20,350 nt of DNA from Escherichia coli (GCF_003334335.1 NZ_QOWQ01000052.1), one strand, 5' to 3'. Shown: positions 16,863-20,350, numbered from the stretch's first letter. Program-made: numbers and translations. Notes: generated by a model not told the origin, from the sequence alone.

Positions 16863-16918
16863 TGAGGGACGTATTTGTATTAGTCGCGACTTGATCTGAC
16901 ACATGGCCTTGAAAGGTT

Positions 16919-16977
16919 GAGAGTTACCGGTTTTGATATGAGTGTCGAATCCTTATCCAAAACAAGAGGTAACTCTC
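16919..16977 (+). repeat. inverted repeat / leader hairpin enclosing the ylbG ribosome-binding site
   Basis: 10-bp perfect arms GAGAGTTACC (16919-16928) and GGTAACTCTC (16968-16977), with inner complementarity GTTTTG / CAAAAC; the 3' arm overlaps the AAGAGG SD and ends one base before the ATG at 16978. Confidence 0.6.
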
Positions 16978-17349
16978 ATGCTTCATACTGCCAATCCCGT
17001 CATCAAACACAAAGCCGGTTTGCTCAATCTGGCTGAAGAACTCAGCAACGTATCAAAAGCCTGTAAAATCATGGGCGTTTCGCGTGATACGTTTTATCGT
17101 TACCGCGAACTGGTCGCTGAAGGCGGTGTGGATGCGCAGATTAATCGTAGTCGCCGCGCTCCTAACCTTAAGAACCGTACCGATGAGGCAACTGAACAGG
17201 CTGTTGTTGATTACGCCGTCGCTTTCCCGACACATGGTCAGCACCGGGCCAGCAACGAGCTGCGTAAACAGGGGGTTTTTATCTCCGACAGTGGTGTCCG
17301 TTCTGTCTGGTTACTCCATAACCTTGAGAATCTCAAAAGACGATACTGA
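16978..17349 (+). pseudogene. ylbG: IS481-family transposase N-terminal fragment (HTH region only), 123 aa
   Basis: ATG at 16978 after AAGAGG (the track's GTG at 16942 is a less likely start). The protein matches the N-terminal DNA-binding part of IS481-like transposases (MGVSRDTFYRYRELVAEGG...) but stops after 123 aa with no DDE catalytic domain and no flanking IS ends. Confidence 0.7.
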
Positions 17350-17863
17350 ACAAATTTTATCAGGTGACGTTCCGTAAAAAGTTGTATGGAGTTCTCGATG
17401 CAGTCGGCGCGACTATCAGTACCCCCGCTGAACCCTGGACTATCGGGCCGCCGTACTGGGGCATGTCACCCTGGCGTGCCGCTGGTTTTCCGCTAATGGT
17501 TTATTTCCTCTTTCTTTCCCGGCAAGAATTTATTTTAATCCGGAAGGATTATTTATTTTCAGATAGGGACTCACATTAAACACGTAACATTTTAATTAAT
17601 GCATGGCTGAATATGTATTACACAATGTCAGATATCGTAAAAGACCAGTGCAATTCTATGTAAACTCTCTGACTGTTCATTTTATTTGTTGTTTCAGGGT
17701 CGGAACTCACCCTCAATAAACAACTGAATACGAGTAGATATTCATCGTCTGAGCTATATGGCTTTACACAATAGCCGACATGTCTTTTCTCAGTCAGGAA
17801 TTTTACTTTTCCTCACTACGAAGTTGACGACTTCGATATGGGATAGACTCTTAATTCAAGCAA

Positions 17864-18354
17864 TTACTCTGCACAAGCATCAGGCAATCCAGCTCCAATA
17901 TTTGTTATAAAATAATGCGTAACATTAATTTCACCAACAAAAAAAAGGTTTACACCATCCCCTTGCCCTGGTATCTTACCATATTTACACCACACTTTTT
18001 TTGTATCTGGATCATTCTTTGATACGATTTTCGCCACTTGTTCCCTGGCCCTCACTGTCAATGTTTTCTTAAACCTACCCCCATCATCATTTGTTAGGGA
18101 AAAATAAGAAAAAAATAATCATCTTCTACATTTGTGTATATTGATATATCCACCGCTACGTGCGGAAAAAAATCTGGGAGCCATGTAAAAACTCCATCAT
18201 TTTCTGGTATTGCCATATAGTTTATGTAATGTTTACTTACAAGAGATTCATCTTTGTATAAATAAAGATAAGTAATTACGCATAAAACAACAATGATTAT
18301 AATAGCAAAAATAAATATTATCATCTTTGATAGATTACTTGAGATAGCCAGCAT
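17864..18354 (-). pseudogene. membrane immunity-like gene split by a frameshift in a T7 tract
   Basis: ORF 18094-18354 (86 aa, one hydrophobic helix IIFIFAIIIIVVLCVITYLYLY) starts just after or overlapping the ylbH stop. A second ORF (17864-18061) is open upstream to 18118 in another frame, and the two overlap at a run of seven A (18109-18115, T7 on the coding strand). I think this is the locus annotated ybbD in K-12, but am not certain. Confidence 0.45.
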
Positions 18355-19045
18355 CTTGTAAAGCCTTTATCGTTTTTTTATGCTCTGGATTAATATAATC
18401 ACTACATCTATCTGAGCAATCTGTTGTTGATGGACATGTCAACCCATGGTCATTTACAGCCAAGTCTTTTTTATTATCTTCAATCATTTCAGAATGGGAT
18501 AGCTTTACTTTTCTGCCGTACATACCGAACAGATTTAACCCGTAATCTCTAATCTCTTTTTCATAACCCAGCCCTTTCGCCGATCGGCTAACACCAGCGT
18601 CATTTAATTTAGACACTCGACAAAATGCCATACAATGGAAAAATTGATCAGTCCCACCTAAATTTAATCTCTTCATATCTTCATAAGTATCAGATAATAT
18701 ATCCCATGCTCTTTGATGGTTTAGTTGATCTTTTCTTCTTATTAGCGCTACATCTGCGGGACTTAACCCTAATGGATCAATACCATTCACCGGATTCAGC
18801 GGATACGCATACAGACTCCATCCCCCCTCCAGCCCTATCGGGTCCTGAGTGATATACCGCCCCTGCAACGGATCGTAGTACCGGTTCCGGTTGTAGTACA
18901 GCCCCGACTCCTTATCATACTGCTGCCCCGGCAGCCGGTACGGCTGGTGCAGGTGATGCGGGTTCTCTTCATTCAGCTGGTTGCCCCACTCATCATACTC
19001 CCCGCTCCACGCAATGTTTCCATCCGCATCCATCAGCGCCAGCAT
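18335..19045 (-). pseudogene. ylbH: orphan Rhs C-terminal toxin fragment (short core remnant plus variable CT domain)
   Basis: The first ~94 codons (…[15 protein letters not shown]…[16 protein letters not shown]…DPLGL) are homologous to the end of the Rhs core seen in rhsD at ~19960-20242, followed by a distinct ~142-aa Cys-containing C-terminal domain. No SD is visible and the ATG overlaps the ybbC stop (TAATG), so there is no N-terminal Rhs body. Confidence 0.75.
18764..19045. repeat. Rhs core-end direct repeat, copy A (in ylbH)
   Basis: About 230-280 bp aligning to 19960-20242 at roughly 85% identity by eye, e.g. GGGTCCTGAGTGATATACCGCCCCTGCAACGGATCGTAGTACCGG in both copies. Boundaries are approximate. 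Confidence 0.7.
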
Positions 19046-19413
19046 TATTTACTATGTAGGAAATTCAAAACACATCCATTTTTCTTATTAATTTCTATAA
19101 TAAATACACCACCCGCAACTTCATAAGGTAACTTTGCTCCCTCAACAACCCAACTATCTGGTAGTTCCGTAATTAAATATGGTTTTTCTTCTTCTGCAAT
19201 CCGTTCGCCATAGCGATACCTAACATATATTTCAGCTAATTGTATCGCCATTGTTTCAGTTTTTACCGTATTTTTAACAGAGTATTTATCTAAATGTAAT
19301 TTTTCCACATACCTCATAAAAATAATGTTTTCATCAGAACCGTAAACAGCTGTCTCATTACAGGCAAATAGTATAAAAAATGAAAGCATCGAAAATATTG
19401 AACTATATTTCAT
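19045..19413 (-). CDS. ybbC: Rhs-associated immunity-like protein with N-terminal signal peptide / possible lipobox, 122 aa
   Basis: ATG at 19411-19413 with AAGGAG upstream, 39 bp after the rhsD stop. N-terminus [18 protein letters not shown] has a signal-peptide-like hydrophobic segment ending LFAC. AT-rich codon usage. Confidence 0.75.
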
Positions 19414-19452
19414 TGAATCTCCTTATAGGCCCCACTAATAAAAGCACTAAAA

Positions 19453-20350
19453 TTAATCATGATACGGTATGCATACTGAACTCAATCCCGGGACACTATT
19501 TCTGATAAAAATATATTCTCCTTTATTATTAAGCGCCTCAAATCGTCCATCAGGTGTTGCGAGATAAAATGCTTCAAGATTATTATCTTTACTTCTTACA
19601 AGATTTTTATCGCTACTTGAAAAAAATTCATCAACATAATCGCCATGACTATCTGCACCGTGAGTATGATAAGCAGCAACTCTATCTGTACCTGTGGGAC
19701 ATTTTCTTTTCAGAGGATATGACTCCTTTCTTAAATTATCAGTTTCTGCCTTAGATGCAAAATATTTTCCATTAGTATCTTTACAGACAATACCAGAGTA
19801 TTCCATATCATTACATAGAGATCTATTCTGCGTTTCTTTCAAAGCATCTAACGCAGCATCTGCAGTACTATCAAATTTACTTGGTCCTATTATACGTGAA
19901 AGAACACCACAAACTCCCCCCGTACATGCTCCAGATCTGGCATCATCCCAAGTCTGCAATAATCCCATAGGGTCAATTTGTTGTAGTGGATTTAAAGGAT
20001 ACTGATATAAATTCCATCCCCCTTTCAACCCCATCGGGTCCTGAGTAATATACCGCCCCTGCAACGGATCGTAGTACCGGTGACGGTTATAGTACAGCCC
20101 TGATTCCTCATCATGCTGCTGCCCTGGCAGACGGTACGGCTGATACACATGATGCGGGTTCTCCTCATTAAGCTGGTTGCCCCATTCATCATATTCCGCG
20201 CTCCACGCCGTATTGCCGTCTTCGCTGATAAGCGCCAGCGGCAGTCCCCGGTGGTCGCAGTGATAAAGATGAGCTTTTCGCGCCGGTGTGTATTCCGGCT
20301 CCACCTGTCTGGCCAGTTGCTCCACCGTCAGCCCGCACTGCGCAAGCCAC
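19453..20350 (-). CDS. rhsD: Rhs protein, 3' portion (end of core plus C-terminal toxin domain); 5' end lies beyond the window
   Basis: The open frame continues to the window edge (the track's Met at 20325 is internal). It contains the Rhs core-end motif [16 protein letters not shown]...[13 protein letters not shown] followed by a ~168-aa AT-rich CT domain with [10 protein letters not shown] and several Cys. The rhsD assignment rests on the ybbC/ylbH neighbourhood. Confidence 0.7.
19960..20242. repeat. Rhs core-end direct repeat, copy B (in rhsD)
   Basis: Partner of 18764-19045; same orientation, about 1.2 kb apart. Boundaries are approximate. Confidence 0.7.

Follow-up and report, generated by a model that had tools for sequence, protein, structure and literature searches.

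What is the run of small, overlapping and partly broken genes that follows mnmH at the right-hand end of a 20,350-nucleotide (nt) stretch of Escherichia coli DNA (GCF_003334335.1, NZ_QOWQ01000052.1; the whole stretch is called the window here), and how did these genes come to stand together? With high confidence, positions 16865-20350 can be identified as the downstream tail of an accessory polymorphic-toxin island, the RhsD element of E. coli K-12, which is flanked by mnmH and ybbP. The sequence of the window is 100% identical to that of K-12-lineage genomes, and the RefSeq order after mnmH in such a record is ylbG, a 96-nt pseudogene, two small hypothetical open reading frames (ORFs), an 'RHS repeat-associated core' pseudogene, ybbC, rhsD (4281 nt, continuing past the end of the window) and ybbP. 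All genes of 16865-20350 except ylbG are on the minus strand. Both sequence and gene order are those of the K-12 RhsD element (rhsD-ybbC-ylbH-ybbD-ylbG), with no difference, and the region is therefore a long-described one.

One design occurs twice in this tail. The core ends of rhsD and ylbH each contain the motif PxxxxDPxGL and matches to RHS_core and TIGR03696; each is followed by a variable tip, and directly downstream of each tip lies a small ORF (ybbC after rhsD, ybbD after ylbH). The 5' part of rhsD, where an N-terminal domain of the PAAR type would be encoded, lies beyond the window. Judged by sequence comparison, each ORF appears to fall in a catalogued family: IS481, Rhs core, prok-SAA/Pfam SAA, PF26610 YbbD_head, Imm-NTF2-2 or DUF4329/Tox-JAB-2. 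A first-pass annotation of the window had listed an insertion sequence (IS) remnant, a frameshifted gene, an orphan toxin fragment and overlapping small genes, and all of these could be located, as ylbG, ybbD, ylbH and the ybbD/ylbH and ybbC/ylbH overlaps, respectively. Its further suggestion that something uncharacterised might hide in the segment was not sustained, every ORF being assigned as above and a spacer at 17498-17863 being left with no match outside the locus. The present analysis adds the exact edges of the island, the frameshift site of ybbD and the pangenome counts; beyond good annotation its significance is small, and consists in a clean, fully resolved case of Rhs tip displacement in a reference strain. 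The features are as follows, in window coordinates and from the rhsD side to the mnmH side, with the block discussed under displacement placed last.

19960..20350, minus strand: 3' end of the GC-rich RhsD core (NCBIfam RHS_core positions 1141-1261, E=2.2e-75)
19453..19959, minus strand: predicted toxin tip of RhsD, DUF4329 = Tox-JAB-2 (Pfam DUF4329, E=2.5e-37)
19045..19413, minus strand: ybbC, predicted immunity gene of the RhsD tip (Pfam Imm-NTF2-2, PF15631, E=6.8e-26)
18764..19045, minus strand: core stub of ylbH, comprising the final 94 codons of an Rhs core (RHS_core positions 1169-1261, E=2.2e-50; TIGR03696, E=3.3e-24)
18335..18763, minus strand: predicted toxin tip of ylbH, 142 amino acids (aa), serum amyloid A (SAA)-like (prok-SAA, Lipocone superfamily), from Pfam SAA, profile and fold
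18094..18354, minus strand: N-terminal part of ybbD, 86 aa (NF011297, E=4.7e-58; NF011298 positions 1-85)
18109..18115, minus strand: frameshift site of ybbD, A7 (T7 on the coding strand) in place of the A8 of intact alleles
17864..18061, minus strand: C-terminal part of ybbD (65-aa ORF), out of frame (NF011298 positions 99-163 of 163, E=3.5e-42)
17498..17863, no strand assigned: AT-rich spacer of 366 nt with no assignable gene
17402..17497, minus strand: relic of the first 32 codons of another Rhs gene (79% identity to the first 95 nt of rhsD; a RefSeq pseudogene), adjoining the IS remnant
16872..17400, plus strand: remnant of an IS481-family insertion sequence (NCBIfam match, RefSeq annotation)
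16865..16871, no strand assigned: start of the variable region on the mnmH side; empty-site genomes match up to 16864, which is 2 nt beyond the mnmH stop (16862)
19044..20239, minus strand: 1196-nt block (duplicated core end, RhsD tip and ybbC) present in K-12 but not in the O157-like strain 106, from pairwise comparison

Distribution, edges and composition

Presence was counted over 5426 complete E. coli genomes, a collection in which laboratory K-12 strains and O157 are over-represented and whose percentages are not population frequencies. The flanking gene mnmH is found in 5405 of the 5426 (99.6%), ylbG in 2974 (55%), the ylbH/ybbD module (17500-18780) in 2729 (50%), and ybbC with the RhsD tip in 1854 (34%). 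An island of an Hcp-toxin gene and DUF2931 genes takes up the same mnmH-ybbP site in 570 genomes (10.5%), and mnmH and ybbP lie within about 1 kilobase (kb) of each other in 1900 (35%), as counted with a chimeric query made of the 3' ends of the two genes. These three states of the site (Rhs-type 55%, Hcp-toxin island 10.5%, mnmH and ybbP close together 35%) total about 100% of the genomes. Two genomes of the last state were read: one has a bare spacer of 226 nt that contains a repetitive extragenic palindromic (REP) sequence, and in the other the two genes are 703 nt apart, with a dinQ-like gene between them. With its parts in 34-55% of the genomes, the segment is not universal in the species, and the horizontally acquired, Rhs-associated island of the first-pass annotation proves, by presence counts and composition, to be an accessory tail of an Rhs element that varies within E. 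coli.

The edges of this variable region could be placed by comparing an empty and a near-empty site (L014 and L015) with the K-12 locus by blastn: the match runs up to 16864 and resumes at 24158, outside the window, and at this right edge homology resumes 6 nt before the stop codon of ybbP. Homology with the Hcp-toxin variant (L006) stops at 16853. The tail is therefore variable, as the first-pass annotation had it, with the correction that its edge is at 16865, right after the mnmH stop, and not at the break in guanine plus cytosine (GC) content near 17.5 kb. Neither the IS remnant (GC content 0.49) nor the Rhs N-terminal relic (0.55) departs from ordinary composition, and for this reason the break, at 17.49 kb, falls some 630 nt past the edge.

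The compositional break itself, described earlier as a sharp change to AT-rich sequence from about 17.5 kb with a GC-rich rhs core, is confirmed in each respect. The GC content is 0.500 over 1-16900 versus 0.394 over 17501-20350, which is far from uniform, and a maximum-likelihood fit of one change point puts it at 17493 (log-likelihood gain, 56). By part, the GC content is 0.337 in 17501-18334, 0.365 in the ylbH tip, 0.312 in ybbC and 0.364 in the RhsD tip, and the Rhs core stubs are GC-rich, at 0.581 (18781-19045) and 0.556 (19986-20350). GC content at third codon positions (GC3) follows the same pattern, at 0.18-0.28 in the tip and immunity ORFs and 0.59-0.71 in the Rhs core stubs, versus 0.541 +/- 0.057 in 14 core genes (z = -4.6 to -6.4 for the tip and immunity ORFs).

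Low GC content could also result from functional constraint, or be the ordinary intergenic or regulatory AT-richness of native DNA, and the conserved part of the window does hold patches of this kind: its composition, called typical of E. coli in the first-pass annotation, is not uniform, the lowest 500-nt window in 1-16.9 kb having a GC content of 0.358 (141-640) and another patch, at about 7750-8250, one of 0.40. The former lies upstream of the first long ORF, in what should, by the gene order of K-12, be the divergent fdrA-allD regulatory region. The AT-rich stretch of the island, in contrast, is coding, with GC3 some five to six standard deviations (sd) below that of the core genes, and it spans nearly 3 kb, whereas 1-16900 contains no multi-kilobase AT-rich coding stretch like 17501-20350 and not one 2850-nt window below 0.460 GC (mean 0.499, sd 0.018). 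The absence of the segment from 45-66% of the genomes contradicts this reading, and the presence of ylbH tip homologues in Hafnia and Rahnella also argues against it. Native AT-richness is thus scarcely credible as the explanation.

Proposed displacement of one tip by another

The likely order of events within the tail can be read from strain 106, in which a tip of the ylbH type is attached to a full-length Rhs and is followed directly by the N-terminal ORF of ybbD, with neither ybbC nor the RhsD tip; SM107 likewise has a tip of the ylbH type on a full-length Rhs. Positions 1-8143 of the strain 106 locus (L002) correspond to 10900-19043 of the window, and its positions 7892-14247 to the window from 19988 onward, such that 252 nt of L002 match twice. 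Within the window, the core end is present twice, as a 280-nt direct repeat (18764-19043 and 19960-20239, 80% identity) with a spacing of 1196 nt. The K-12 locus is the O157-like locus plus the 1196-nt block, which is the footprint of a textbook C-terminal tip displacement.

The C-terminal displacement model of Rhs evolution was put forward by Jackson et al. 2009 (PMC2935791). According to that model, a foreign cassette in which a core end was followed by a new tip and an immunity gene would have recombined into the resident core, and the 1196-nt block would be the product of its entry. Recombination would have duplicated the core end of about 280 nt and pushed the old tip-immunity pair downstream, away from start signals of its own. 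The ylbH tip would then be the previous tip of the same locus, and ybbD its membrane-anchored immunity gene, inactivated by a 1-nt deletion in a homopolymer. Several features of the locus agree with the model: downstream of a full-length Rhs lies a dissociated tip still joined to a piece of GC-rich core, the core end is directly repeated, and a shared, presumably ancestral tip of the ylbH type (attached in strain 106) would have been displaced by a new tip-immunity cassette. Tip displacement would also account for the compositional mosaic of GC-rich Rhs cores and AT-rich, exchangeable tips and immunity genes with codon usage foreign to the host, because after it GC-rich cores alternate with AT-rich foreign tips and immunity genes.

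The incoming pair belongs to families already known to go together. The translation of the RhsD tip reads HTH...SSSD, a motif of metal-binding type, and ybbC begins 39 nt past the rhsD stop. In Zhang et al. 2012 (PMC3482391), DUF4329 is the family Tox-JAB-2, characterised by the motifs E, H[ST]H, S and D; it is paired there with Imm-NTF2-2, this pair is noted in E. coli only, and a nuclease role is favoured. The RhsD tip and YbbC share families, motif and adjacency with that pair, and no difference was detected. From family membership alone, the JAB-like tip is predicted to be a metal-dependent nuclease or peptidase that would act in the cytoplasm. Both ybbC and ybbD are likely cognate immunity genes, judging from their sequences and positions.

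The orphan module ylbH/ybbD

What kind of toxin was displaced, and is it still of use? The ylbH ORF (18335-19045) is intact, with 236 codons. By itself the tip has a weak Pfam SAA match (E=1.3e-3 in one scan, 3.6e-4 in another), and a word-index protein search reached close relatives only, whereas an exhaustive search of protein representatives, which found 92 relatives, reached SAA-like sequences. In an alignment of the tip with 45 of these (46 sequences), 33 members match Pfam SAA at E<=0.001 (best, 1.7e-26), and the family profile (46 homologues) matches serum amyloid A chains of the PDB at E=6.9e-15 to 1e-7. An AlphaFold model of the tip, with a predicted local distance difference test score (pLDDT) of 96, has helices at 2-33, 39-51, 56-78 and 90-108 and two short ones, and in this predicted structure the tip has the prok-SAA fold, a four-helix cone with a short fifth helix. 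The top seven Foldseek matches of the model in the PDB are all SAA, with probability 1.00 and target-normalised template modelling (TM) scores of 0.68-0.73. Invariant in the 46-sequence alignment are D39, H43, C44, C48, E70, D100, N104, C116 and C120, and G107 is nearly so.

That this tip is SAA-like has been noted before: the O157 RhsD z0651 was described as having an SAA-like C-terminus (PMC7216683), and for Burroughs and Aravind (bioRxiv 10.1101/2025.01.14.632903) prok-SAA is one of several Lipocone families that serve as tips of polymorphic toxins. Such tips are predicted by these authors to cleave lipid head groups in the periplasm, with immunity provided by membrane proteins or lipoproteins, and TelC (TelC/TipC) is named as the only Lipocone toxin characterised. 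The ylbH tip resembles prok-SAA Lipocone tips and z0651 in its SAA profile, Pfam match and fold, in its place after RHS repeats, and in having a membrane-anchored immunity partner, but YbbD (PF26610) looks unlike the four-cysteine immunity domain that is coupled to prok-SAA in that study. If family membership is a guide, the tip would cleave lipid head groups such as that of lipid II in the periplasm, a prediction that fits because the tip has four invariant cysteines and the immunity protein a single N-terminal membrane helix. Laboratory E. coli K-12 holds a homologue of animal serum amyloid A that is orphaned yet complete, beside a repairable immunity gene, and K-12 and its relatives offer a convenient system for a first biochemical test of prok-SAA (Lipocone) toxins, although the lead has been published.

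The partner gene, ybbD, overlaps the ylbH stop by 20 nt. YbbD has a single hydrophobic N-terminal helix, with the stretch MIIFIFAIIIIVVLCVITYLYLY read from the translation, and its C-terminal (soluble) half has two cysteines that are conserved wherever that half is present in a seven-sequence alignment. Its homologues carry PF26610 YbbD_head, which is newer than the Pfam copy in which a scan of the 163-aa protein gave no match, and an AlphaFold model built from seven sequences (pLDDT 54) was too poor to use. In a DNA alignment of K-12, B1-56 and strain 106, K-12 is one base short in an 8-nt homopolymer, and strain 106 is without the same base and one more in a second tract. The 163-aa ORF is intact in B1-56, KFu024, SM107 and O104:H4, and intact alleles, including some about 4% diverged at the DNA level, stand beside attached as well as orphan tips. 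A YbbD homologue with 50% identity follows an SAA-like Rhs tip with the same 20-nt overlap (one distant case). This homologous pair and the retention of the intact 163-aa ORF support the pairing of ylbH and ybbD as toxin and immunity gene. Synonymous versus non-synonymous differences between diverged alleles (7/9 for ybbD, 5/10 for the tip) were too few to be informative, and the count for the core stub was spoiled by an indel.

The state of ybbD in other genomes was scored by the length of the matched span, which is 917 nt in K-12, as RefSeq names are unusable here, the same 163-aa protein being called 'YbbD family protein' or 'hypothetical protein'. A spread sample of 60 genomes contains four length classes, 916, 917, 918 and 919 nt, and the 918-nt class, about one quarter of the sample, is intact in all four records that were read. 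Such a series might suggest a phase-variable switch, in which the homopolymer tracts turn immunity on and off, in place of simple mutational decay; the differences do sit in two poly-T tracts, as placed from three aligned alleles only (K-12, B1-56 and strain 106), and the 918-nt alleles that were read all encode the full protein. The length class is fixed within lineages, however, all sampled K-12 derivatives having 917 nt and all seven O157-type entries 916 nt, and runs of 7-8 nt are short for efficient slippage; part of the variation may moreover be homopolymer error of long-read assemblies. A phase-variable switch is very unlikely on this evidence. The length classes fit decay at slippage-prone sites better than rapid phase variation because each is fixed within its lineages.

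At 19043-19047, the ybbC stop and the first ylbH ATG overlap as TAATG, exactly where the duplicated core segment ends, and translational coupling there could in principle yield a stand-alone YlbH protein of 236 aa. Orphan ylbH/ybbD may be a working module, either as a reserve cassette that recombines onto rhsD through the 280-nt repeat or as a stand-alone pair resembling a toxin-antitoxin system. The intact ORF with its coupled ATG, the direct repeat shared with the rhsD core end, and the retention of the module by about half of the complete genomes are consistent with such a role, and both orphan recombination and toxin-antitoxin-like behaviour are documented in Salmonella (PMC3967940, PMC7043789). 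The Salmonella case is that of Typhimurium LT2 (Koskiniemi et al. 2014, PMC3967940), which shares with K-12 the arrangement of a main rhs followed by an orphan tip-immunity pair with core homology. The LT2 orphan, however, works and can be transferred to the main gene by recombination when selected for, whereas the immunity gene of the K-12 orphan is frameshifted. Several other features of the window speak against a working module: at just 80% identity, the two copies of the repeat are poor substrates for RecA-mediated exchange; the ylbH ATG is preceded by no Shine-Dalgarno-like sequence, and promoter-like sites are at chance level; RefSeq calls ylbH a pseudogene; and the SAA-like fold, four invariant cysteines and membrane-anchored immunity protein point to action outside the cytoplasm, such that a protein made internally may be harmless. 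A working module is on balance unlikely, and ylbH is better regarded as a displaced tip beside a decayed partner. The whole RhsD element is probably silent in K-12 because K-12 is not known to have a type VI secretion system.

A more elaborate possibility, and a highly doubtful one, is that ylbH is translated by way of TAATG coupling while slippage in ybbD switches between the 86-aa and 163-aa forms, with lineages toggling their sensitivity to a lipid-targeting SAA-like toxin. O157, with its attached tip and doubly frameshifted ybbD, would in that case depend on the 86-aa membrane fragment alone.

Several observations weigh against reading the tail as an acquired island shaped by tip displacement, in addition to the bias of the genome collection given above. 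The edges of the island have no integrase, tRNA gene or target-site duplication: between mnmH and ybbP RefSeq lists neither an integrase nor a tRNA gene (annotation only, with no separate tRNA scan) but just the truncated IS481-like gene, and the left edge has no flanking repeat within the window. The island furthermore replaces, and does not merely interrupt, the 226-nt REP-containing spacer found at the empty site. How the island was acquired, and whether the event was a gain or a loss, is for these reasons only inferred, and the island may be ancestral and have been lost repeatedly. With respect to displacement, the two core ends are 80% identical here, whereas attached and dissociated core fragments are identical within a strain in Jackson et al. 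(PMC2935791), and the cores of K-12 and strain 106 are mosaic, their identity ranging over 82-99% from one 150-nt window to another, so that a single recombination event would not be enough. With respect to function, the toxin and immunity roles of both modules are predictions from sequence, and the sNxxGR motif of the SAA-Wnt clade (helix 4) is VNDHGL in ylbH, with R replaced by L.

The O157 genomes raise a further difficulty of the same kind. O157-type genomes have the SAA-like tip on an intact Rhs, and in strain 106, the one that was aligned, ybbD has two frameshifts and leaves only an 86-aa membrane fragment (ORFs 7194-7454 and 7435-11631 of L002); the same 916-nt span is found in the seven O157-type entries, which include O157:H7 ATCC 35150 and Z1830. 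This state is awkward if the SAA-like toxin is active and ybbD is its sole immunity gene, and it must mean one of three things: the 86-aa fragment suffices, the toxin is silent, or the toxin is inactive.

Remnants and neighbouring features

Between mnmH and ybbD lie older pieces of the locus. The RefSeq pseudogene ylbG (16978-17343; ORF 16942-17349), labelled 'missing C-terminus', encodes the N-terminal helix-turn-helix part of a transposase and matches NCBIfam transpos_IS481 (E=2.8e-25) at model positions 2-112 of 284, with a score of 89 bits versus a cut-off of 224, below the full-length cut-off as a fragment should be. To its left, 16872-16951 is found again next to other IS debris in another locus (L003), and to its right, 17346-17400 is a second, short piece of 55 nt from the integrase-core part, 85.5% identical to an 'integrase core domain' gene on a plasmid. 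The IS481-like sequence is a remnant and not an element, there being no full-length DDE transposase. The adjoining Rhs relic matches NCBIfam RHS_core at positions 12-33 (E=2.7e-4), a minus-strand ORF (17360-17464) corresponding to the very start of the Rhs core; a search for its parent found other Rhs 5' ends that match at 75-81% only. These pieces suggest an older Rhs copy that was truncated by an insertion sequence and a later deletion. The 366-nt spacer beyond them has no similarity outside the locus in E. coli, and a plus-strand ORF that extends 82 nt into it (17364-17579), the only spacer ORF scanned, has no NCBIfam match. An Rfam scan of the whole window found no RNA family within the island, and a promoter and terminator scan of 16800-20350 gave counts at chance level that were not used.

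The mnmH-ybbP site is a hotspot for toxin-immunity cargo, and its Hcp-fused variant is a different type VI effector island; in strain WP3-W18-ESBL-07 (L006 10159-14161), it consists of a 2004-nt Hcp-fused toxin gene and three DUF2931 genes. In O145:H28 RM12761 (L015 1040-1195), a gene for a 51-aa protein, labelled in the annotation as a dinQ-like type I toxin, lies between duplicated short sequences of the type AAAAAACCGACATGACAGT, and a dinQ-like gene occurs in many near-empty mnmH-ybbP spacers. Copies of IS1 have repeatedly inserted in the island or deleted parts of it in various strains (for example, L004 7090-7787 and L005 7096-7793), and some of the affected strains keep only ylbG and the Rhs relic beside ybbP.

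At the other end of the window, far from the island, two segments on the minus strand (3740-3806 and 3832-3874) gave the only Rfam matches, both at gathering score, to the enterobacterial small RNAs STnc480 (87.6 bits) and ES036/CssrF (38.1 bits), respectively. They lie in the gap between a plus-strand ORF that ends at 3733 and a minus-strand ORF at 3961-5106, which by the gene order of K-12 are presumably allE and glxK.

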